A DNA stretch of 64,000 nt from an uncultured Verrucomicrobiae bacterium (GTDB lineage Bacteria; Verrucomicrobiota; Verrucomicrobiia; Chthoniobacterales; UBA10450): assembly GCA_963772365.1 (NCBI GenBank), contig CAVYXA010000004.1, positions 37,761 to 101,760 on the forward strand, given 5' to 3'. The position numbers were made by a program, and so were the translations under genes. Every line of letters begins with the position of its first letter. Position 1 is the first letter of the stretch. Shown here piece after piece: positions 2,777 to 52,412 of this stretch. The notes under the pieces are model-generated. The model worked only from the letters and a program-made list of their open reading frames with translations, ran no database searches and was not told the origin of the DNA.

Positions 2777-3553
2777 GTGTTCGCGGGTGATGCGCGAATG
2801 TTCCTTCCAGAAATCGTAGCAGCAGGGGGCCTGCTCTTCGCATTCGATCACGCGACGATCGCAGGGAAGCTGGTTCTTCTGCTTCTGGCGATCGGGTCGA
2901 TCTTTAGCTGGTCGGTCATGATCACGAAGTTGCGCGTGGTCCAGTTTGCCCGAAAACAAAACGCCCGGTTTCGTGGTGCGTTTCGACAGGATCGACAACC
3001 ACTGCGGTTATTCGAAAAAAATGCGCGCTTTCCCGGCTCACCCAATTTCAATGTTTACCGGGCTGGCTGCCAGGAAATGACGTTTCACTTGCTCGGCTCC
3101 GCCGAAGTGGACGAAACATTTAAAGCCCGTTTGGAAATCGCCGATAAAATTTCGCCCGCGCAAATGAACGCGGTCACAGCGGCAATGGAACGCGCCGTGG
3201 GCGAAACAGCGATCGCCCTCGAGTCGCAAATGATTCTTTTGGCGACGGCGGTGAGCGGCTCTCCATTTCTGGGATTGTTAGGCACCGTGTGGGGAGTGAT
3301 GGATGCATTCACCGGCGTGGCCGTGGCGGGTTCGCCGAATCTCGCTGCCATGGCTCCCGGGGTTTCCGGCGCACTTATCACCACCGTCACCGCCCTCTGC
3401 GTGGCAATCCCCGCAATGTTCGGTTACAATTTTCTCGTCACCAGCATACGCGCGATCATTGTGGAGATGGATAATTTCGCGGCCGAGCTCGCCTCGGAGT
3501 TTGAGCACAAATATGTCGATCACGGCGCGCGCGAGCCCGCCTTCCGCAGATGA
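2777..3553 (+). CDS. tolQ: MotA/TolQ/ExbB family proton-channel protein
   Basis: 258 aa with three TM segments and the C-terminal LGLLGTVWGVM...APGVSGALITT motif typical of TolQ/ExbB. It is followed by tolR-like, TonB/TolA-like and tolB genes. The start may instead be the internal MFLPEIV. Confidence 0.75.
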   Translation: MFAGDARMFLPEIVAAGGLLFAFDHATIAGKLVLLLLAIGSIFSWSVMITKLRVVQFARKQNARFRGAFRQDRQPLRLFEKNARFPGSPNFNVYRAGCQEMTFHLLGSAEVDETFKARLEIADKISPAQMNAVTAAMERAVGETAIALESQMILLATAVSGSPFLGLLGTVWGVMDAFTGVAVAGSPNLAAMAPGVSGALITTVTALCVAIPAMFGYNFLVTSIRAIIVEMDNFAAELASEFEHKYVDHGAREPAFRR

Positions 3554-3576: not shown

Positions 3577-3636
3577 ACCCTCACCTCAGTCCTCTCCCTG
3601 GCCAGGGAGAGGCGGACGCGAAGCGCCGGTGAGGGT
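3577..3636. repeat. Family B 60-nt nested palindrome, intergenic copy
   Basis: ACCCTCACCTCAGTCCTCTCCCTGGCCAGGGAGAGGCGGACGCGAAGCGCCGGTGAGGGT lies between tolQ and tolR. It is about 90 percent identical to the copy at 21434..21493 inside lysA. Confidence 0.8.
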
Positions 3637-3647
3637 GGACCAGCACG

Positions 3648-4064
3648 ATGAGACGCTATTCACAGCGTCAGGGATTATCATCGCTCAGCGAGATCAACAT
3701 CACGCCGTTGCTCGATCTGGCGTTTGTGCTGTTGATCATTTTCATGATCACCACACCGCTGCTCGAGAGCAGCATGAATCTCATCATTCCATCGAGCACT
3801 CAGCAAAATCCGACGATCAAATCTCCGGAAGTGCAGACGATCTCGATCGATCGGGCCGAGAAGATCACGTTCAACGATCAGATTGTCGATCTTCCGACGC
3901 TCACAGCTCAATTGGTCCAACTGAAGCAGACGAATCCTGACGTGGCTGTGGTGATTCGACCGGATCGGGACTTGCCAGTGCAGAAATTGATCGCATTGAT
4001 GGACGCGTTGCAAAGCGCGCAAATCACGAAAGTAGGCATCGCCACCAAAGCTGGATCGAAATAA
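3648..4064 (+). CDS. tolR: ExbD/TolR family biopolymer transport protein
   Basis: 138 aa. The N-terminal EINITPLLDLAFVLLIIFMIT segment is the ExbD/TolR signature TM helix. It sits next to the tolQ-like gene. Confidence 0.8.
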   Translation: MRRYSQRQGLSSLSEINITPLLDLAFVLLIIFMITTPLLESSMNLIIPSSTQQNPTIKSPEVQTISIDRAEKITFNDQIVDLPTLTAQLVQLKQTNPDVAVVIRPDRDLPVQKLIALMDALQSAQITKVGIATKAGSK

Positions 4065-6209: not shown

Positions 6210-7220
6210 TTACAACAGCGCCAGCGATTTGCCTTCGCGTCCAGTGACTTGATCCATGGTGCATTGGCGGGGCGATTTGTCGGGTCGCCAGCGGAGAAAT
6301 TTCGTCCCGTGCCGGAACCGGCCGCCTGTGAAATGATCGTAGGCAACTTCGACTACACTCTTAGGTTCGACAGGTTCCCATTGGCCGCTTCTCTCAGTGC
6401 TCCAGCGACTCGGCCCGCCTGGCGCATTGCCGGTGAATCCCGGTGGGTTGCGCAATGCTTCAAATTTTTTTGTGAGCGAACGGCGTTCGCTTGCCTTGAT
6501 TGCGGATGTGAAGCCAACATGATGAAGTAATCCATCATCGCCGTACAAACCGAGCAAAAGCGAGCCGAGAACTTTGCCGCTGCTGGCATAACGAAATCCG
6601 CCCACTACGCAATCCGCGCTCCGGATCTTTTTTACCTTCACCATCGCGGTCCGTTCACCGGAAGCGTAGGGCAGATCGAGACGTTTTGCGATTACGCCAT
6701 CGAGATCGCCGCCGGCTTTAGCAAACCATTTCTGTGCCTGCTTCAGGTTCGTCGTGGCTGGCGACAGTTTCACAGCCCCTGTGAGTTCGAATTTATCGAG
6801 CTGGACCCGCCGCACGCGAAGCGGCTGTTTTAAATACGATTGTCGATCCTGCGCGAGCAGATCGAATACGACATAGATGGCCGGTTGTACTTTCGCTAAT
6901 TTCGCAACCCGGCTGGCGGCGGGATGCAAACGCAATTGCAATTCGTCAAAAGAAAGTCTGCCACCAACCGCGATTGCTAGCTCACCATCGACGACGAAAT
7001 TCCGACCCGGCAATTTTCTCACCGATTCCACCACATCAGGAAAATAGCGCCCTAGCGGTCGTCCGTTTTTCGATTGCAGATAAACATCGTTCCCGTTTCG
7101 AAAAGCTATGCAGCGAAACCCATCCCATTTCGGTTCGTACTGCCAATTATCACCGACTGGAATTTCCTCCACTGTGCGCGCCTCCATGGGCGGAAGAGGC
7201 GGTTTAATTGCAAATTTCAT
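6210..7220 (-). CDS. ATP-dependent DNA ligase (minimal adenylation + OB type, LigC/LigD-ligase-like)
   Basis: 336 aa with nucleotidyltransferase motif I YEPKWDGFRC. Downstream are VVDGELA, a DLLxxD block and an OB-domain tail ending FLRWRPDKSPRQC. Confidence 0.85.
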   Translation of the reverse strand: MKFAIKPPLPPMEARTVEEIPVGDNWQYEPKWDGFRCIAFRNGNDVYLQSKNGRPLGRYFPDVVESVRKLPGRNFVVDGELAIAVGGRLSFDELQLRLHPAASRVAKLAKVQPAIYVVFDLLAQDRQSYLKQPLRVRRVQLDKFELTGAVKLSPATTNLKQAQKWFAKAGGDLDGVIAKRLDLPYASGERTAMVKVKKIRSADCVVGGFRYASSGKVLGSLLLGLYGDDGLLHHVGFTSAIKASERRSLTKKFEALRNPPGFTGNAPGGPSRWSTERSGQWEPVEPKSVVEVAYDHFTGGRFRHGTKFLRWRPDKSPRQCTMDQVTGREGKSLALL

Positions 7221-7890
7221 CCCGAGCGTAACGCCGTGGAGTCAATTTTGGCGGGCGCTTCCCATTTCGAATGGCTCCGGCGACGGGAATATATCGCAAC
7301 TCCTGTCGATCGTGTGCGCATCGCAGCATCAAACCTCCGCGACTCATGTCGCCGCGTCCGATAAAATCTGCCGGGAAACAAAGCTTTTTCTGAAAATTGG
7401 CGAGAAGAACATCGACATATTTTCCGCTGGCAATGCTTCCGAGTAGAACAACGTCGGATGTAATGGATAATTTTCTCGCAAGGAGCCCGGCGTCTCGCTC
7501 GAGCGGTTTGCGATAGCGCGGATCGTTTTCGTCGATGTCGATCTCGGCAAACTCGCGTAGATCCTCGAGTCGAATCCGCGTCTGAGCATCGACAAGTCCG
7601 CGTGTTGGTGTGATCACAAACACGGCGGAAGCGCCGTTAGCCGAACGCGCGAAAGTTTCCGCGTAGGCGATCTTGCCGCGGAAATAGAGTCCGCTCAAAA
7701 ATGTAAACACCTCGGCAATGCTCGCTCCGCGCCTGCTCCGAAGTTTTTTCGCGAGATCAAATTTCGCAGTCTCTCTCAGGATCATCTGTGCGCGTCGGCC
7801 ACCCGCGTAAGCCGGCGATAACAAAAAGATGCGGCTTTCACCGGTTTGGCGAGCCTGGTCAGTTTCCGAATTTTTCATCCTCATTATCAC
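7204..7890 (-). CDS. Hypothetical protein, translationally coupled to the DNA ligase
   Basis: 228-aa ORF whose 3' end overlaps the ligase start by 17 nt. I recognise no motif. The composition is coding-like, with conserved-looking blocks IFLLSPAYAGGRRA, VVLLGSIASGKYVDVL and FIGRGDMSRGGLMLRC. Confidence 0.5.
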   Translation of the reverse strand: MIMRMKNSETDQARQTGESRIFLLSPAYAGGRRAQMILRETAKFDLAKKLRSRRGASIAEVFTFLSGLYFRGKIAYAETFARSANGASAVFVITPTRGLVDAQTRIRLEDLREFAEIDIDENDPRYRKPLERDAGLLARKLSITSDVVLLGSIASGKYVDVLLANFQKKLCFPADFIGRGDMSRGGLMLRCAHDRQELRYIPVAGAIRNGKRPPKLTPRRYARDEICN

Positions 7891-13675: not shown

Positions 13676-13689
13676 AAATCAAAAGCCTA

Positions 13690-13782
13690 GTCATCCCGAG
13701 CGCAGCGAAGCGGAGTAGAGGGACCCCGGTGCGTTGGCTTTCCGGTTTTGCAACGGGATTCCTCGGCTCCGCTCGGAATGAC
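13690..13782. repeat. Family A hairpin element, copy 2
   Basis: GTCATCCCGAGCGCAGCGAAGCGGAGTAGAGGGACCCCGG...GGGATTCCTCGGCTCCGCTCGGAATGAC fills the scpB-glmM spacer. Confidence 0.8.
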
Positions 13783-15198: not shown

Positions 15199-16944
15199 CT
15201 ACAGTGACGACGACGATTCCGTTTGTCGATTGTGATCGCTCAGAAAAATGCATTCATTCTCCAGTCCGAGCAGCATGCCCCATTTCAATGGGAATGTCTC
15301 CAGATTCACCGTCCGCGAAATAATTGGCGCCCACGCGCTGTATTCTCCTTTCAAAATGTCGCCGAGGGTATTTTGGCTGCCGCTGATGGGTGTGAGATAA
15401 AGACCGTAAACCGGGCCGCCAAGAATTCTGTAATCGCTGATATCGGTCATCTCCTTGATCGTTTCCGGCACATAGAGAGCGCGCCGATCGGCATACCACG
15501 CCACCGCCCACGGCATATCGGACGCGGTCACCTCGTTAGGCTTCATCCAATCGTTCAACACGGCGATGTAGGGCGGAACATAAGGCGGCCAGCGGATCGA
15601 TGACTCCGGTTGTTTGAAGAATGGTAGTTTTAGGATCAGGGGCGTAGCGCAAAGTAAAAACAACAGCGTGATGAATGCGATCCGCGCCACTCGAAGACGC
15701 AGCTCCAATCGACGCCATTGGACCAGAAGGAACGCGAGCCCGTAGCAGGTCATCAGCGGCACAAACATCAGGTGCAGTTGGTTTGCGGCAAAACCTTGTT
15801 CTTCATTGACGCCAAAGACGGCCATGCCTGTGACGCCGCCGAGCCACATGGTCAAAAGCATCCATCGAATTGTTCCCGTTTCGCGGCGTCTGAAAACGTA
15901 AAGCAGCCCGGCAAAAAACATGATCGCGACAATGCTGTAGCCGAAATATCCGAAGAGTCCCGCCGCCTGATTCAAAAAATTGGTGACGATCTTATCGCGG
16001 AAACTCGAAGGGAGAGCACTCCCTTCCAAGTCCAAACTCAGCCGCCGCATCCAGCCGGATTCGGTATGCTGGATTCCGTCGAGAACGGAATAGATCGCCA
16101 GACCCGCAGGATTTCCACTAACGAGATAATTTCGGATCAGCCACGGAAAATAAACAATCGCGAACGCAGCCAACAAAACGAGAGCAGCCCAGCCCCGCGG
16201 CCGAAAAAAGAAAACGCAGTAAATGAATGCAGCGACAAAAATCCAGATAGTCAGCGCGTGAGTGAGGGCCAGAAGTCCGAAACCGAGCCCGACGAAGGCC
16301 AGCCACAATCCCACGCGTCCGCCGCCATATCGTGCTTCGACAGCGCGAACCAGTGCATACATGGTGCAGTTGAACAAAAACAGCAGCAGCATCTGAGGCA
16401 GACCGGAGAGCGAGTACTGCCAGAACATGTCGCAGAGCAAGACCAGCGCGCACGTCATCAAAGCCAGACGCTGATCGAACAATCGCCGCACAATAAGGTA
16501 GAGAACCACTACCGAAAGCAAAAAGAGCGCGATCGCCATCACCACGACCGCCCGATCCCCAGCGTATAGAACGTCGGCCGGCGTCATTTTCCAGTGGGAT
16601 TTGATCGGGAAAAGCGCAATCGCATCCACCAAAGACGGCAACGGCGCATTATAAGTGTCGATCCAAATTTTCTGCGGCACATCTTTGCCATGGGCCAGCA
16701 GGTTCCCAATCGAGAGTGGCCGGGCAAAATTCGTTCGCCAACCATGACCGCGAGCAATTTCCCGACCGATTTGCGCCTGATCCATCGCCTGCGAGGTGGC
16801 CAGCCCGCGGAACTCGTGCGTCATATAAAAGATAGCCAGCAGTGCAACGCCCGCCAGGGCGAGGCCGCGACGCATCCAAACTACGGGCTTGCCAGCTTCT
16901 AGACTGTGAACTAGGCGCTGGATGAATTCTGCGCTACCTGGCAT
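15199..16944 (-). CDS. Multi-pass membrane protein, probably a GT-C fold (ArnT/PMT-like) glycosyltransferase
   Basis: 581 aa with at least 10 predicted TM helices followed by a soluble C-terminal domain. This is the general architecture of GT39/GT83 enzymes. I could not verify a diagnostic motif. Confidence 0.4.
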   Translation of the reverse strand: MPGSAEFIQRLVHSLEAGKPVVWMRRGLALAGVALLAIFYMTHEFRGLATSQAMDQAQIGREIARGHGWRTNFARPLSIGNLLAHGKDVPQKIWIDTYNAPLPSLVDAIALFPIKSHWKMTPADVLYAGDRAVVVMAIALFLLSVVVLYLIVRRLFDQRLALMTCALVLLCDMFWQYSLSGLPQMLLLFLFNCTMYALVRAVEARYGGGRVGLWLAFVGLGFGLLALTHALTIWIFVAAFIYCVFFFRPRGWAALVLLAAFAIVYFPWLIRNYLVSGNPAGLAIYSVLDGIQHTESGWMRRLSLDLEGSALPSSFRDKIVTNFLNQAAGLFGYFGYSIVAIMFFAGLLYVFRRRETGTIRWMLLTMWLGGVTGMAVFGVNEEQGFAANQLHLMFVPLMTCYGLAFLLVQWRRLELRLRVARIAFITLLFLLCATPLILKLPFFKQPESSIRWPPYVPPYIAVLNDWMKPNEVTASDMPWAVAWYADRRALYVPETIKEMTDISDYRILGGPVYGLYLTPISGSQNTLGDILKGEYSAWAPIISRTVNLETFPLKWGMLLGLENECIFLSDHNRQTESSSSL

Positions 16945-20392: not shown

Positions 20393-21757
20393 GTGCACGC
20401 GTTTCATTACCGCGATGGCAAACTTCACGGCGAAGATGTCGATCTTACCTGCGTGGCCGAGCAGTTCGGGACGCCGCTGTATGTATATAGCGCGAGCACA
20501 ATTCTGGATCATTACCAACGCCTCGATACCGCTTTGGCTCCGCTCGATCACTTGATTTGTTACGCGGTCAAGGCCAACTCGAACGGCGCGATCTTAAAAT
20601 TGCTGGGCGATGCCGGCGCGGGGTTCGACATCGTTTCCGGCGGCGAACTCTTCCGCGTGCTCAAAACCGGCGGTGATCCAGCCAAATGTACATTCGCAGG
20701 TGTCGGCAAATCGCGCGCCGAAATCGAGTACACGCTCGACCAGGGCGTTTACAGTTTCAATGTCGAAAGCGAAGCCGAGCTGGAATGCATCGACCAAATC
20801 GCGGCCGAAAAAAAAGTGCAGGCGCCGATCGCATTGCGCGTCAATCCCGATGTCGATCCTAAGACACATCATTACATTTCGACCGGGTCGCACGAGAACA
20901 AGTTCGGAATTTCGCTCGATCGGGTCGAAGCGATCTACAATCGCGCCGCGAAGATGGACAACATCGACATTGTCGGAGTCCAAATGCACATCGGCTCCCA
21001 GATTACTGAGGCGAAACCGTTTGCCGAAGCGATCGGGAAAGTTGCCGGAATCGTGCGCCAGCTGAAATCGAAACACGCCATCAAGTTTTTCAGCATCGGC
21101 GGCGGCATGGGAATCATTTATCGCCGCGCATTAGAGAGCGGCTCGGGCCAATGGTGGCACAAGCATGGTCCCGCATGCGCGGGATCCGCATTCAGCATCC
21201 GCGATTATGCCGATGCCATCGTGCCGTCGCTGCGTAAACTCAATGTCCGGATCCTGGTTGAGCCGGGCCGGTTTCTGGTTGGAAATGCCGGCGTTCTTCT
21301 CACCCGGGTTTGTTACGTCAAACAGACCGGCCAAAAGAAATTTGCGGTTGTCGATGCTGGAATGAACGATCTCATCCGGCCGGCCCTATACCAGAGTTAT
21401 CACGAGATCGTGCCCGTTAAAGAGTGTGGCAACACCCTAACCTCAATCCTCTCCCTGGAAGGGAGAGGCGGACGCGAAGCGCGGGGTGAGGGTCGAGCCA
21501 CACCGACCGAGAAGATCGACATTGTCGGACCGGTCTGTGAATCAGGAGATTTTTTCGCACTCGACCGGGAGATGCCGCCGCTGCGTCAGGGCGACCTGCT
21601 CGCCATCATGAGCGCCGGCGCATATGGATTCACGATGGCCTCGAATTATAATTCGCGTCCCTTCCCCGCCGAAGCGCTGATTCGCGGGGACCAGTCCAGA
21701 CTAATTCGTGAGCGACAAACGTGGAGCGATCTGGTGCGCGGTGAGATCGACAATTAG
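20393..21757 (+). CDS. lysA: Diaminopimelate decarboxylase, carrying a 20-codon repeat-derived insertion
   Basis: GTG start. It has the PLP lysine block (ICYAVKANSN), GGGMGI, EPGRFLVGNAG and CESGD motifs. An extra LTSILSLEGRGGREARGEG segment is encoded by the Family B element. Confidence 0.9.
   Translation: MHAFHYRDGKLHGEDVDLTCVAEQFGTPLYVYSASTILDHYQRLDTALAPLDHLICYAVKANSNGAILKLLGDAGAGFDIVSGGELFRVLKTGGDPAKCTFAGVGKSRAEIEYTLDQGVYSFNVESEAELECIDQIAAEKKVQAPIALRVNPDVDPKTHHYISTGSHENKFGISLDRVEAIYNRAAKMDNIDIVGVQMHIGSQITEAKPFAEAIGKVAGIVRQLKSKHAIKFFSIGGGMGIIYRRALESGSGQWWHKHGPACAGSAFSIRDYADAIVPSLRKLNVRILVEPGRFLVGNAGVLLTRVCYVKQTGQKKFAVVDAGMNDLIRPALYQSYHEIVPVKECGNTLTSILSLEGRGGREARGEGRATPTEKIDIVGPVCESGDFFALDREMPPLRQGDLLAIMSAGAYGFTMASNYNSRPFPAEALIRGDQSRLIRERQTWSDLVRGEIDN
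21434..21493. repeat. Family B 60-nt nested palindrome, in-frame inside lysA
   Basis: ACCCTAACCTCAATCCTCTCCCTGGAAGGGAGAGGCGGACGCGAAGCGCGGGGTGAGGGT is exactly 60 nt (20 codons) and about 90 percent identical to 3577..3636. It is flanked by the 7-bp inverted GTGTGGC/GCCACAC. Confidence 0.8.
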
Positions 21758-21789: not shown

Positions 21790-22530
21790 TTACGGAGCCT
21801 CCAAACTCCAACCTGACGGAAGCGTTGGACCGTAGGCGCCACCGATGTAGGCACTGTTGTTCAGATACCAGATCGCTGTCCGGCGGGTGCTGGTATTCTG
21901 CAACAAATAATCAGGCTTTTCGTCCGAGTTAAAATCGGCCACGCCGACCAATTCATAGCCACTCGCAATCGTTGGCCCATAGACGCCCCTGAGAAACGTA
22001 ACCCCGGAGAAATACCAGATCGCTGTCTGACGCGTGCCGCGGTTGAAGAACGCTACATCCACCGAGCCGTCCCCATCGAAGTCCGCTATACCAGCCTTTC
22101 TCCAGCCAACCGGAATAGTGGGCCCGTATGTGCCCCCGATGTAAACGTTGTTGTTCAGGTACCACACCGCCGATCGGCGCGTGCTCGCATTGAAAAGCAC
22201 GTAATCAGGTTTTCCGTCGCCATTAAAATCGCCGACAGCGACCAAGGCCCATCCGCTCGGGAGACTGGGCCCGTAAGCGCCGCTGATGTAAACGTTATTG
22301 TTGAGGTACCAGATCGCCGTCTGGCGTGTGCTGGGGTTGAACAGGGCGTGATCCGGGTGGCCGTCGCGATTGAAATCGGCTACATCGATTACGCTCCAGC
22401 CAACCGGCAGAGTCGGAGCATAAGCCCCGCCGATATAAACGTTGTTATTCAAATACCACACTGCCGTCTGGCGCGTGCTTCCGTCATAGAGCAAGTAATC
22501 TGGGTGGCCGTCACCGTTGAAATCGTAGGT
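21790..22530 (-). repeat. Tandem ~144-nt coding repeats (five FG-GAP-like units)
   Basis: The peptide periodicity is read directly from the translation of 21790..23841. The boundary is approximate. Confidence 0.75.
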
Positions 22531-23841
22531 TGCTTGCGAGGGAGGCGTGGAGCCGAATTCGAAGGCGCCCATGTCCACGATGCCGTTCGCGATACGGCGG
22601 TTGCCATCCAGGTCGGTGCCTGTGGTCATCCAGGTCTGATTGGTTCCTGTGTCAATGCACGGCGAGCCGCTACCAAGATGGTACCCGGTCGCAAAACCGG
22701 GGTCAGAAGCGATGTTGCCGGCGCCGGGAGGCAGGGGAGTTGAGTCGCAGTGGTCAAACGTCGCTGCCCCATACGGGTTGAGGTAATAGTTAGGATCAGT
22801 GGCGGCAGTGTTACCATAGATGATTGTGTTCCGAATCTGACTGCCATAGGCGAGACCTCCTCCGTTGGAGAAATTGCCATAAAGTGTGTTGCCAGAGACG
22901 GTGCTGGACTCCAGAATCCCGCCGCTGTTGAAATACACGCCGCCGCCCACCGCCCAGTTGGCGCCTCCGGGGTCGGTATGGGCGTTGTTGCCGGTGATGA
23001 GACAGTTTCGAACAAGACCATCCACGTTCGCCGTCATGTAAACTCCGCCGCCGTTGGCATACCAATGTCCATAGGCCGTGTTGCCGCTGATCGTGCAGTT
23101 TTGCACTGAGCCGTTGTTGGCGTTGATCCCGGCGCCGTTCGCGTAATAGCCGGTCAGGGTGTTGTTGGTGACGGTGGAGTGGTCAATCTGACTTTCATCA
23201 ATAGCATAGATGCCGCCACCCTCGGCGAACGCCCCATACTGGTAGCTATTTGTGGATGTGACGGTATTCCCGCTGATCATACAGTGAGAAACGGTTCCTC
23301 CGTTACAATAGACACCGCCACCCTTTGGTGCATCACCTACCGCCTGATTGTTGGTGATCACGCAGTTCGTTAGGGTGCCGCCAACACAGTAAACGCCGGC
23401 GCCAAGCTCCGCCGTTCCATTGGCAATCGTCAGGCGGGAAATGGTGGCGGTACTGGAAGTGATATTGAAAATGCGGAAAGGCATCACGGAGTTGCGCTGC
23501 ACGGTCAACAGATTTACGCCGGGGCCATTGATCGTCAGGTGTTTGTTAATTAACAACTCACCACTCGTGAGGTTAATCATGGTAACACCAGCAGCGAAGT
23601 TAATCACATCGCCGGACGCCGCATTAAGGATCGCCTGCCGCAGTGATCCCGCGCCGCTGTCGTTACCATTGGTAACAGTAAGAGTTGCCGCCGGCGCATC
23701 GGTCGCATTTAATAGGAGGGCGGAGATCACGCAAGCCAGATAAGAACACCAGTGCGTCGGCAAATACCGGTTATGACAAGGGGTTGTTAACATGATCTTT
23801 TTCATATTTTTTCCAAAGATTGATTGTGGGGCGAGAAGCAA
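21790..23841 (-). CDS. Secreted parallel beta-helix protein with C-terminal FG-GAP/VCBS-like repeats
   Basis: The N-terminal half has repeated GGG(V/I)Y..N/T..I.GN turns (GAGVYC, GGGVYC, GGGIYA, GGGVYM, GGGVYF) typical of right-handed beta-helix repeats. The C-terminal half has five ~48-aa DFNGDGxPDY...TRxTAIWYLNNNVYIGGAYGPTLPxGW repeats. The likely start is the internal MKKIML at 23805. Confidence 0.7.
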   Translation of the reverse strand: MLLAPQSIFGKNMKKIMLTTPCHNRYLPTHWCSYLACVISALLLNATDAPAATLTVTNGNDSGAGSLRQAILNAASGDVINFAAGVTMINLTSGELLINKHLTINGPGVNLLTVQRNSVMPFRIFNITSSTATISRLTIANGTAELGAGVYCVGGTLTNCVITNNQAVGDAPKGGGVYCNGGTVSHCMISGNTVTSTNSYQYGAFAEGGGIYAIDESQIDHSTVTNNTLTGYYANGAGINANNGSVQNCTISGNTAYGHWYANGGGVYMTANVDGLVRNCLITGNNAHTDPGGANWAVGGGVYFNSGGILESSTVSGNTLYGNFSNGGGLAYGSQIRNTIIYGNTAATDPNYYLNPYGAATFDHCDSTPLPPGAGNIASDPGFATGYHLGSGSPCIDTGTNQTWMTTGTDLDGNRRIANGIVDMGAFEFGSTPPSQATYDFNGDGHPDYLLYDGSTRQTAVWYLNNNVYIGGAYAPTLPVGWSVIDVADFNRDGHPDHALFNPSTRQTAIWYLNNNVYISGAYGPSLPSGWALVAVGDFNGDGKPDYVLFNASTRRSAVWYLNNNVYIGGTYGPTIPVGWRKAGIADFDGDGSVDVAFFNRGTRQTAIWYFSGVTFLRGVYGPTIASGYELVGVADFNSDEKPDYLLQNTSTRRTAIWYLNNSAYIGGAYGPTLPSGWSLEAP

Positions 23842-23959
23842 TTTGATCTTGGGGGAGGCACTTGTGGATATTCTCGCTGGAATGGAACGGCCTTTTTACG
23901 CACTTTCCGCCAGAAACGCAAGAAAAAAATTCTAGGATCGAGCCAGGCCGAATGGTGTT

Positions 23960-24300
23960 TGCCAATCGCGCAGGAAGCGTTTGTCCGTAGGCACCGCCAA
24001 TAAAGACGTTGTTGTTCAATACCAAATCGCCAGCTGGCGCGTGCTGGTATTAAACGGGGCATAATCGGACTTGCCGTCGCGGTTAAAGTCCGCTGTGCCA
24101 GTCAAGATTTAACCGGTGGCGATGGTTGGGCCATAGACGCCGCCGACAAACACATTGTTATTCAAATACCAGATCGCGGATTGGCGAGTCGCAGCGTTGA
24201 AGAGCAGGTAATCGGTTTTGCCGTCGCCGTTGAAATCGCCGACAGCCACCAATTCCCCAGCCGCTGGGCAGCGTTGGGCCGTATGCGCCGGCATCGGGAA
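23960..24300 (-). pseudogene. Decayed 3' fragment of a paralogous FG-GAP repeat gene
   Basis: The minus strand reads DAGAYGPTLPSGW, then a frameshift, then ELVAVGDFNGDGKTDYLLFNAATRQSAIWYLNNNVFVGGVYGPTIATG. An in-frame TAA stop follows, then ILTGTADFNRDGKSDYAPFNTSTRQLAIWYLNNNVFIGGAYGQTLPA. That is two repeat units with no N-terminal domain and no start. Confidence 0.65.
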
Positions 24301-28231: not shown

Positions 28232-29476
28232 CTAACGACAGACGTGCGTTTCCGGGTTCATTCGATATTTCCAGTCAGACCCGTTTGAGCCAGCTTCGCT
28301 CAAAGCGGAATCGACGAGCGAGCGATTCGCGGACAATGTGCAGACCGGATCCGTGTTGGCGGCGTTGCCGGTGAGCAACGCCGCTTGGCAACGGCAGCCA
28401 CCGAAATCGATTTCTTTTTTCGGACAACTCCGACACGGCTCCGGCATCCAATCGGTTCCGCGAAACCGGTTAAAGCTCTCCGATTCTCGCCAGATCCAAT
28501 CGAGCGACTGCTCCCGGACATTTTCGAATTGCATATCCGGAATCGCCGATGATGCCGTCGGACAGGGCGAGACGTCGCCGATCGGATTGACGGTGAGATA
28601 GCGCTGGCCCCAGCCGTTTAGGCACGGTTTCGGCCGCGTTTCGTAATAATCGGGCAGGACATAAAAGATGTCGATCTTACTGGCTAGCCGTTCTTTTGCC
28701 GCAGCCGCGATTTCACGGGCACGCTCGACTTGTTCGCGCGTCGGCAATAACGCGGCCCGATTCAAAAATGCCCAGCCGTAGAATTGCGTGTTGGCCAGCT
28801 CGACCCGATCGGCGCCGAGCTCTTCTGTCAGATCGATCATCTCTTCCAACTGATCGATGTTGTGCCGATGCAAAACGAAATTAAGGCTGAGAGAAATGCC
28901 GGCGCTGCGAATTAGCGCCGCGGCGTGGAGCTTTCGTTGATGTGCTCGCGCGCCTGCGATCTCATCGGCAAGATCGACATCGGCAGCTTGAAAACTGAGT
29001 TGCACAGAATCAAGGCCGGCGTCCCGCAATTCATTGACCCGCTTTTCATCGAGGATGATGCCGCTGGTGATCAGATTGGTGTAGAGATTGGATTCCCGAG
29101 CCGCGCGAATAATCGCGGCAAGATCGCGCCGAACCAGCGGTTCACCGCCGGAAAAGCCAACCTGCAATACGCCCAGCGCTGCCGCTTCACGAACAACGCG
29201 GAGCCATTCCTCGGTGGTCAATTCCGCATGAAGTGCTGTAGCGTGCGCTGTCCTCAGCGCATCTGTTGATGGCGCCGCTCGGCTTCCGCTGAGGAGAGCG
29301 GACGCTACACTGACCGGATTCGAGCAATACGGACAATGCAGCGGACAACGATGTGTCAGCTCCGCCAGCAATGCGTATGGACGCGGCGGCGCTGTAGGGG
29401 AAGCTGATAGCTTCCCGCGTGGCTGCGTTTTAGGGAAAGTGTCAGTTTCCCCTACAGTTTTCTTTGTCGTGCTCAT
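28232..29476 (-). CDS. pqqE: PQQ biosynthesis radical SAM/SPASM enzyme PqqE, with two repeat-derived in-frame insertions
   Basis: LLAELTHRCPLHCPYCSNP (CxxxCxxC radical SAM), GFSGGEPLVRRDL and C-terminal SPASM cysteines (CPTASS...CRSCPKKEIDFGGCRCQA). An ATGA overlap joins it to pqqD. Confidence 0.9.
   Translation of the reverse strand: MSTTKKTVGETDTFPKTQPRGKLSASPTAPPRPYALLAELTHRCPLHCPYCSNPVSVASALLSGSRAAPSTDALRTAHATALHAELTTEEWLRVVREAAALGVLQVGFSGGEPLVRRDLAAIIRAARESNLYTNLITSGIILDEKRVNELRDAGLDSVQLSFQAADVDLADEIAGARAHQRKLHAAALIRSAGISLSLNFVLHRHNIDQLEEMIDLTEELGADRVELANTQFYGWAFLNRAALLPTREQVERAREIAAAAKERLASKIDIFYVLPDYYETRPKPCLNGWGQRYLTVNPIGDVSPCPTASSAIPDMQFENVREQSLDWIWRESESFNRFRGTDWMPEPCRSCPKKEIDFGGCRCQAALLTGNAANTDPVCTLSANRSLVDSALSEAGSNGSDWKYRMNPETHVCR
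29236..29310. repeat. Family C GTAG-REP doublet (REPIN) inside pqqE
   Basis: CTGTAGCGTGCGCTGTCCTCAGCGCA...CCGCTGAGGAGAGCGGACGCTACAC spans 75 nt (25 codons). It encodes SVASALLSGSRAAPSTDALRTAHAT, directly after the radical SAM CxxxCxxC motif. Confidence 0.75.
29391..29456. repeat. Family C GTAG-REP doublet (REPIN) in the pqqE N-terminal region
   Basis: CTGTAGGGGAAGCTGATAGCTTCCC...GGGAAAGTGTCAGTTTCCCCTACAG spans 66 nt (22 codons) and encodes TVGETDTFPKTQPRGKLSASPT. Confidence 0.75.
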
Positions 29477-47054: not shown

Positions 47055-47158
47055 GCGCCGGCACCCGGAGCGGCTGCGCTACAAGAAGAAGATCCGCTGA
47101 GACAGACAGCGGACACTACAGCATCCTTACCGCTGTAGCGTGCGCTGTCCTCAGCGCA
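47055..47158. repeat. Cluster of three Family C GTAG-REP units upstream of pstS
   Basis: The cluster reads ...GCGCCGGCACCCGGAGCGGCTGCGCTACAA, then GATCCGCTGAGACAGACAGCGGACACTACAG, then CTGTAGCGTGCGCTGTCCTCAGCGCA. The last unit is identical over 26 nt to the unit at 29236..29261 in pqqE. Confidence 0.75.
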
Positions 47159-47213
47159 TTGGATCAACGCGTGGCTACATCCAAGTTCCCGCCCGGAGCA
47201 ATCGACGCCGAAA

Positions 47214-52331: not shown

Positions 52332-52412
52332 GTCATTCCGAGCGAAGTCGAGGAATCCATGGCGCAACTCACCGGTAGTTCCACGGGATGTCTCGACTTC
52401 GCTCGACATGAC
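52332..52412. repeat. Family A hairpin element, copy 4
   Basis: GTCATTCCGAGCGAAGTCGAGGAATCC...GGGATGTCTCGACTTCGCTCGACATGAC. Confidence 0.75.

Follow-up and report, generated by a model that had tools for sequence, protein, structure and literature searches.

A 60-nucleotide palindromic repeat lying in frame in lysA and in other genes of the Candidatus Udaeobacter lineage

The closest described counterparts of the element analysed here are the Rickettsia palindromic elements (RPEs), nearly half of whose 44 copies in R. conorii are intragenic and in frame (Ogata et al., 2000, as reviewed in PMC10969869). Repetitive extragenic palindromes (REPs) are 20-40 nucleotides (nt) long, carry a GT[AG]G head, lie overwhelmingly outside genes, typically form inverted doublets and cluster beside their REP-associated tyrosine transposase (RAYT); in P. 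fluorescens SBW25, 14 of 1,067 REP 16-mers overlap genes (PMC3116915). Here we examine a palindromic element of 60 nt that occurs twice in a 64,000-nt stretch of DNA from an uncultured Verrucomicrobiae bacterium (assembly GCA_963772365.1, contig CAVYXA010000004.1, positions 37,761 to 101,760 of the forward strand). This whole stretch is called the window below, and coordinates refer to it unless a retrieved locus, given by its L number, is named. One copy lies in frame within lysA, the gene for diaminopimelate decarboxylase, and the other in the spacer between tolQ and tolR. We consider it likely that the 60-mer belongs to a non-autonomous palindromic repeat that is specific to the lineage of Candidatus Udaeobacter/Chthoniobacterales, is present in few copies and has landed in spacers as well as in genes. 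The two copies, their parts and the host gene are as follows.

20393 to 21757, plus strand: lysA, diaminopimelate decarboxylase, 454 amino acids (aa), open reading frame (ORF) intact; PF02784 and PF00278, PDB 3n2b (E 1e-115) and Foldseek
21434 to 21493, plus strand: element copy in lysA, encoding LysA residues 348-367 (TLTSILSLEGRGGREARGEG)
21434 to 21442, plus strand: 5' arm of the outer stem in the lysA copy, ACCCTAACC, pairing with 21485-21493 with one A/G mismatch
21485 to 21493, plus strand: 3' arm of the outer stem in the lysA copy, GGTGAGGGT
21448 to 21468, plus strand: inner hairpin 1 of the lysA copy, CCTCTCCCT, GGA loop, AGGGAGAGG
21473 to 21481, plus strand: inner hairpin 2 of the lysA copy, CGCGAAGCG, which includes GCGAAGC
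3577 to 3636, plus strand: intergenic element copy, 23 nt past the tolQ stop codon and 11 nt ahead of the tolR ATG
3617 to 3625, plus strand: CGCGAAGCG mini-hairpin of the spacer copy, from sequence and fold

An earlier, sequence-only reading of the window had described two 60-nt copies with about 90% identity, and both this figure and the coordinates were verified: the alignment contains four mismatches and two compensating 1-nt indels, leaving 55 of 61 columns identical. When a 27-nt pattern covering the inner hairpin and junction core was searched for, its sole match was the spacer copy, against an expectation of none from shuffled sequences (mean 0.00); the lysA copy is missed by this fixed-spacing pattern because its loop is 1 nt shorter. 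The octamer CCTCTCCC is confined, within the 64 kb, to the four arms of the two copies, and nhmmer (--max, with a profile from 28 copies) detected no further copy in the window. The outer arms that had been proposed, ACCCTnACC/GGTGAGGGT, and the inner palindrome (CCTCTCCCTGG/CCAGGGAGAGG in the spacer copy) are both present, but the pairing in the lysA copy is not perfect, given the A/G mismatch, and a third hairpin had been overlooked. Because this third, small hairpin, CGCGAAGCG, is present in both copies, the fold of each, as RNA or DNA and on either strand, is a three-way junction composed of the outer stem ACCCTCACC/GGTGAGGGT (9-12 bp), the hairpin CCTCTCCC(TGG)/(CCA)GGGAGAGG (9-11 bp) and the small hairpin itself. 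RNA fold energies are -30 and -36.7 kcal/mol (z -2.6 to -3.9), and the DNA folds reach z -3.5 to -3.9. Judging from the family consensus, the palindrome of the lysA copy may extend to about 21431-21496 (…GGGTCGA). GCGAAGC is an extraordinarily stable DNA mini-hairpin with a melting temperature of 76.5 °C, found in single-strand replication origins and primase sites (PMC13037366), and its presence here offers a lead, short of a demonstration, towards a possible role in single-stranded DNA.

The prediction that an in-frame insert leaves lysA intact was borne out: the insert (T348-G367) is placed between HEIVPV and IDIVGPVCESGD in an uninterrupted ORF, one peptide spanning it would be TLTPTLSLEGRGGREAPGEGE, and the element peptide in LysA follows the pattern TLT[SP][IT]LSLEGRGGREAPGEG. 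In an alignment of orthologs, a check that the sequence-only reading had proposed, the insert is missing from all 120 other verrucomicrobial LysA proteins gathered by profile search, which share 58-75% identity with the window LysA and each have an 11-aa loop between EIVP and DVVGP; an ancestral LysA loop is rejected. Metagenomic LysA orthologs below 70% identity (down to 45%) have a loop of about 9-11 aa and near-constant length. Among the 120 closest homologs, from the Udaeobacter clade and 74-81% identical, the loop measures 14-56 aa and the element peptide is found in 95, so the insertion in lysA is old, mostly inherited vertically and present well beyond this one genome. A neighbour-joining LysA tree computed with a masked loop has the outgroups without the element as its earliest branches. 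These comparisons show the lysA insert to be a derived state, which would have entered after Udaeobacter split from other Verrucomicrobia.

An AlphaFold model of LysA was built from a 71-sequence alignment (mean predicted local distance difference test (pLDDT) score 80, predicted template modelling (pTM) score 0.82), replacing an earlier run on a shallow alignment in which the C-terminal domain fell below pLDDT 50 and was unusable. Residues 347-366 are modelled as coil with pLDDT<50 between the strands 338-341 (EIVP) and 373-378 (EKIDIV), the second of which runs into the conserved GPVCESGD motif. The model agrees with solved LysA structures (template modelling (TM) scores 0.8-0.9, Foldseek), and alignment with PDB 3n2b gives the window LysA 23 extra residues at the element loop. 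The model thus shows the insert in a predicted disordered surface loop, a low-confidence coil between two strands. The earlier description of this region as a variable loop fits the modelled coil but requires qualification outside Udaeobacter, where the sequence of the loop varies and its length does not. Two other insertions were seen in LysA. One, of about 18 aa (SGSGQWWHKHGPACAGSAF; window 21100-21180, LysA residues ~237-262), is present relative to solved LysA structures and has low pLDDT, and its WW-containing version is common to the window LysA and other Verrucomicrobia. The other, in frame and distinct from the element, adds about 26 aa (ESSFESGAREWWDDTT…) to another loop of the LysA ortholog at L030:1459-2928, where it duplicates neighbouring sequence.

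Beyond the window, an exact 23-mer of the element, AGGGAGAGGCGGACGCGAAGCGC, was found at 26 loci in a scan that covered one genome for each of 185,579 species; all are in Candidatus Udaeobacter, Chthoniobacterales or Verrucomicrobia metagenome-assembled genomes (MAGs), with at most three loci per genome. The flanks differ among the 26 loci, which are therefore separate insertion sites, and several sites recur across species. The suggestion that the element is repeated was thus upheld, with copies at at least ten other genomic sites in related genomes, and the inserts in relatives have related, not unrelated, nucleotide sequence. Selection by the 23-mer inflates the apparent conservation of that segment in the 26 loci; outside the search word, the element is also nearly constant among copies. 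Leaving aside the copies that define the loci, the surroundings of lysA in six genomes (~121 kb) contained one further full copy, and the ~171 kb covered at the 26 loci contained only fragments of the element. Neither half of the element matched viral contigs. Rfam offered no family, the whole window at the gathering threshold and the spacer copy at a permissive one giving only noise (microRNA models, E>0.7), and our literature search returned no paper joining Udaeobacter with palindromic elements. The comparisons show a dispersed family specific to Candidatus Udaeobacter/Chthoniobacterales. At one of the loci (L013:5722-5790), the upstream sequence matches dnaE2 loci (0.81-0.84 identity) and the downstream sequence DNA-methylase loci (0.80-0.83), with the junction exactly at the element; the repeat may have misled the assembler, or two copies may have undergone rearrangement.

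When the 26 loci are taken together with the two window copies, at least 17 of the 28 copies lie inside genes, with a long open frame passing through the element. The hosts comprise nine gene families, UvrA, DnaE2, MoeA, a DNA methylase, gamma-glutamyltranspeptidase (GGT), FadB, an amidohydrolase, glycerate kinase and LysA, and for most intragenic copies the insert lies within a Pfam domain envelope that exceeds the profile by ~20-28 residues, the FadB linker being the exception. The hosts other than LysA are listed by locus.

UvrA (L001, L004, L015): insert within the protein
DnaE2 (L010, L023): insert in the HHH_6 domain
MoeA (L003, L005): insert in the MoCF domain
N6_N4 DNA methylase (L006, L025): insert inside the domain
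GGT (L007): insert inside the domain
Amidohydrolase (L022): insert inside the domain
Glycerate kinase (L026): insert inside the domain, element reversed
FadB (L017, L019): insert in the linker between ECH and 3HCDH, element reversed

Three forward frames are used, reading TLTSILSL…GRGGREAPGEG, PSPQSSPWPGRGGREAPGEG and PHLNPLPGQGEADAKRQVRV, and reverse frames occur too. Peptides of the PSPQSSPWPGRGGREAPGEG type belong to DnaE2, where L010 has …REAPVRV, and to GGT. Where the frame requires it, stops of the consensus are removed, by TCTATC in place of TCAATC in L026 and by replacement of a segment in L017 and L019, and such stop-removing variants in stop-bearing frames argue that the element is translated. 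From the open frames we infer that the insert would appear in the protein as an extension of 20-28 aa. Changes within the element were also observed: the copy at L110:11036-11118 has an internal insertion that interrupts hairpin 1, and in the fadB copies (L017:5543-5623 and L019:1607-1687) the TCAATC junction is replaced by 14-17 nt, which suggests nested events.

Conservation of the element was assessed at the nucleotide level. Across nine lysA orthologs the mean identity is 0.88 in the element, 0.77 in the gene core and 0.48 at 4-fold degenerate sites; with 4-fold sites only 48% identical, the synonymous sites of lysA are near saturation. Orthologous copies in uvrA, dnaE2, the methylase gene, moeA, fadB and one intergenic site are conserved at least as well as their flanks, and usually better, in a comparison that used only 40 nt outside the search word. 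Because the 23-mer biases the 26 loci, the conservation tests rest on the protein-retrieved lysA set and on the unselected part of the element. In seven lysA copies of equal length and the same frame, registered by hand, 3 of 42 stem columns vary as against 8 of 18 unpaired columns (Fisher p=0.0016), and stem third-codon positions are invariant in 13 of 14 cases compared with 16% of third positions in the gene core (binomial p about 6e-10), the sequences being related by descent and both p-values indicative only. This hand-registered set took the place of a covariation count on the MAFFT alignment, in which the 3' arm is displaced by 1-nt indels. Elsewhere in these seven genes, 11% of 4-fold sites are invariant. 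The near-invariance of the stem third positions implies a constraint on nucleotides and not on the peptide. Among copies, hairpin 1 has T-A, C-G or G-C as its apical pair, with the palindrome preserved, and GCGAAGC is invariant in 38 of 38 copies, 12 of which were not picked by the search word. Taken together, sequence comparison shows nucleotide-level conservation that is concentrated in the stems and exceeds that of lysA synonymous sites. This corrects the sequence-only reading on one point: on this evidence, the element in lysA is not drifting freely.

It is possible, though we would advance it only tentatively, that the element is mainly a host-selected cis-acting DNA or RNA module, serving as a protein site or in mRNA stability, translation or replication, and not selfish DNA. 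Conservation that exceeds that of synonymous sites and leaves only unpaired positions free to vary would be expected of such a module, and so would the unchanged mini-hairpin, the small number of copies and the age of the orthologous insertions; moreover, the lysA-specific variant CCCCAACCC has been inherited vertically and has not been overwritten by the family consensus. However, the host genes are unrelated, are entered in any frame and both orientations and share no common operon logic, close strains do without the element or have another palindrome in its position, and it is missing from 25 of the 120 closest LysA homologs. We likewise regard it as unlikely that Udaeobacter actively retains the 60-mer as a nucleic-acid module, a three-way junction with its unchanging mini-hairpin that would be recognised by a protein of the host or one derived from a transposase, or would function within single-stranded DNA or mRNA. 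Were this the case, 60 nt would carry two overlapping codes, with purifying selection acting even inside an essential coding sequence.

For the lysA loop, the following alleles were recorded.

Family-consensus allele, TCAATCC: window, L108, L111
lysA-private allele and majority form, CCCAACC: L016, L107, L112, L115
Allele with another hairpin-loop length and its 5' half in another frame: L027, L030, L109
Allele with a further insertion in hairpin 1: L110
Allele with an extra, unrelated palindrome beside the 60-mer: L111
Alleles with only other palindromes, GTAG-headed, and without the 60-mer: L113, L114

The clearest comparison is between L113 and L115 (L113:1856-1945, L115:2135-2300), where the DNA flanking the loop is 96-99.6% identical and, the loop apart, a single residue distinguishes the two LysA proteins. 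The loop of L115 is the 60-mer, and that of L113 is a perfect palindrome of the GTAG type, GTAGGGCGTCCGCCGCGGCGGACGCC, 23 residues shorter. This pair shows replacement of the loop allele: what amounts to a single species is polymorphic for presence or replacement of the element, and the loop is a hotspot of ongoing turnover. A different palindromic insert in the lysA loop was observed at L111:8596-8670 and in proteins P0085, P0096, P0037, P0073 and P0104; it is translated as RLRSSAAHQAS or LRAATARQAS and stands either alone or beside the 60-mer.

Recombination, either as gene conversion or as exchange of loop cassettes via the conserved flanks, could in principle produce both the conservation and the patchy loop alleles with no need of selection, although we judge this quite unlikely. 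The loop types (A-TSIL, A-TPTL, B, C and other palindromes) are interspersed on the LysA tree, the L113/L115 difference is a clean allele swap between conserved flanks, and the dnaE2/methylase junction of L013 falls exactly at the element, all of which would suit such exchange. Yet the residues beside the element (ESVSLSHSKNKSGK, EIASESKSRTEK, EFVSQSKRGK) are clade-specific and diverged while the element is constant, and A-TPTL occurs in lysA alone, which means that the lysA element is not being homogenised by conversion from copies elsewhere. In addition, a 60-nt tract at low copy number would be a poor substrate for frequent conversion.

That the insert remains untranslated, through ribosome bypass or removal from the mRNA, so that only the hairpin matters, is very improbable. 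A stable hairpin within coding sequence would be in keeping with it and bears a superficial resemblance to the bypass element in gene 60 of phage T4. Against it, all intragenic copies have an open frame and a net length that preserves the frame, stops have been removed in frames where the consensus has one, and intron, intein and take-off or landing features are all missing. Artefact or chance, whether as assembler misplacement in lysA or as a coincidental likeness of the two window copies, has next to no probability, since, although L013 does resemble a mis-join or rearrangement at a repeat, 95 independent LysA clusters, drawn from numerous samples and assemblers, contain the insert (one of them on a 2.69-Mb contig; the 2.69-Mb contig ERZ26871208:contig_36995 carries L107), contig names with 'k141_' in many of the assemblies suggest k=141, which exceeds the 60 nt of the element, no copy has a broken frame and no chance match is expected.

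If the 60-mer is, as we favour, a non-autonomous palindromic repeat, a single strand of it would fold into the three-way junction with its GCGAAGC mini-hairpin and would move, or have moved, as single-stranded hairpin DNA by means of a trans-acting enzyme of the HUH/Y1 kind. Copies arriving in genes would survive only where the net insert keeps the frame, is free of stops and lies in a loop or linker, and the survivors would be translated into 20-28 aa, mainly Gly, Arg, Glu, Pro, Ser, Thr and Leu. The entry point of the element in lysA would have been a short beta-hairpin loop immediately ahead of the active-site motif GPVCESGD, and inheritance since then would have been mostly vertical. What preserves the stems would be selection, or recognition of their sequence, at the level of DNA or RNA and not of the peptide, and the tolQ-tolR copy may serve as an intercistronic mRNA hairpin. 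Several points weigh against this account. In the loci retrieved, no transposase or other mobilising enzyme is linked to the element, and no target-site duplication is visible at the boundaries of the 38 aligned copies; the REP on either side of the sole RAYT-like gene seen (L108 16174-16623) is a different one, with a GTAG head. The density of copies is low, about one further full copy per 100 kb or more, unlike a bursting miniature inverted-repeat transposable element (MITE). The strong conservation across species is unlike that of a decaying selfish insert and points to an added constraint of some kind. Finally, translation of the insert is deduced from open frames rather than observed, and the comparison sequences are nearly all metagenome assemblies.

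Set beside the known systems, the 60-mer resembles RPEs in being a dispersed palindromic repeat that is frequently inserted in frame in unrelated housekeeping genes and apparently translated as an extra peptide compatible with the fold, and in the share of copies within genes, about half in each case (nearly half of 44 in R. conorii, at least 17 of 28 here). It differs in length (60 nt as against ~100-150 bp for RPEs), in its host, a free-living soil Verrucomicrobium in place of an obligate intracellular alphaproteobacterium, and in its three-way junction with the GCGAAGC mini-hairpin and its cross-species conservation beyond synonymous sites. Compared by description and not by alignment, it falls outside RPE-1 to RPE-10, being 60 nt long, confined in the exact-match scan to Udaeobacter/Chthoniobacterales and without an Rfam match. 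With REPs and REP doublets (REPINs) it shares a short, hairpin-forming sequence, dispersal specific to a species group and insertion without target-site duplication; the tolQ-tolR intercistronic site resembles classical REP locations, and a Udaeobacter genome encodes a REP-flanked RAYT-like gene (L108). Unlike REPs, the 60-mer lacks the GTAG head, has the ends ACCCTCACC/GGTGAGGGT, is mostly intragenic and occurs as single copies, and its two inner hairpins are unrelated in sequence. No RAYT homolog was found in the window or in ~0.6 Mb of retrieved loci other than the one in L108, which is flanked by another REP.

MITEs such as Correia/NEMIS and intragenic ERIC are likewise small, with terminal inverted repeats, a non-coding origin and occasional in-frame fusions to ORFs (PMC10969869). 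Terminal inverted repeats are present in the 60-mer as the arms ACCCTCACC/GGTGAGGGT, often extended to TCGACCC…GGGTCGA, but it has no visible target-site duplication, a low copy number and a length at the bottom of the MITE range, and no parent insertion sequence with matching ends was seen in the retrieved loci. The small dispersed repeats (SDRs) of cyanobacteria, reported by Elhai and colleagues in 2008, are palindromic mobile repeats of 21-27 nt. They too are reportedly very small, situated both within and between genes and sometimes nested, which may be compared with the insertions inside the element in L110 and in L017/L019; they differ in sequence, phylum and length (21-27 nt as against 60 nt). 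On these analogies we file the 60-mer as a putative protein-coding palindromic repeat, RPE-like in behaviour and outside any named family.

The copy between tolQ and tolR is flanked by the following genes, and the tolR/exbD gene is succeeded by TonB_C-type and then TolB-like genes.

2777 to 3553, plus strand: tolQ/exbB-type gene upstream of the spacer copy, PF01618 (MotA/TolQ/ExbB), E 4e-27
3648 to 4064, plus strand: tolR/exbD-type gene downstream of the spacer copy, PF02472 (ExbD/TolR), E 6e-29

No T-run is present 3' of either window copy, the sequences that follow being GGACCAGCACGATG and CGAGCCACACCG. An intrinsic (Rho-independent) terminator was considered and rejected, as both copies are GC-rich hairpins without a T-run, and for this reason the spacer copy is not such a terminator. 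The intercistronic REPs of E. coli provide an analogy for its position, and an effect of the spacer copy on the relative expression of the tolQ and tolR cistrons is plausible.

Other repeats were encountered nearby. At L108:16088-16650, near lysA, a 149-aa RAYT-like Y1 transposase (16174-16623; PF01797, E 6e-7, HUH motif DHIHL) is flanked on both sides by the GTAG-type REP GGCGCTTGGCACAAGCGCCTCTACAA, forming a classical REP/RAYT unit distinct from the 60-mer. GTAG-headed palindromes thus exist in the Udaeobacter lineage, with sequences different from that of the 60-mer. The window itself contains a second palindromic family of ~100 nt, GTCATCC[CT]GAGCG…CTCGGAATGAC, at 1698-1798, 13681-13782, 7217-7242 and 52377-52412; the first two copies, which are full-length, look intergenic, and the spacer from uvrA to lgt contains one copy of the family. 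A third, short repeat, GCTGTAGCGTGCGCTGTCCTCAGCGCA, is found at 29235-29279 and 47132-47176 and is REP-like, with a GTAG head and a palindrome, its copy at 29235-29279 lying in a 456-aa open frame on the minus strand. Directly downstream of lysA, a gene on the minus strand (window 21790-24300) encodes a 683-aa protein with 147-nt tandem coding repeats that are FG-GAP/VCBS-like (WYLNNNVYIGG…), and a related repeat is present near 24000-24260.

The occurrence of these elements has practical as well as biological implications. The repeats create odd low-complexity segments in protein predictions for Udaeobacter and can cause mis-joins in MAGs, of which L013 may be an instance. In-frame palindromic repeats in housekeeping genes have hitherto been treated as a peculiarity of Rickettsia, and the 60-mer would constitute a second, independent system, in a free-living and globally dominant soil lineage with a small genome, where it occupies lysA, uvrA, dnaE2 and moeA. 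It thereby bears on the ways in which selfish or structured DNA may enter proteins, on the tolerance of proteins to loop insertions near active sites, and on how an element may come to be conserved above the level of synonymous sites.

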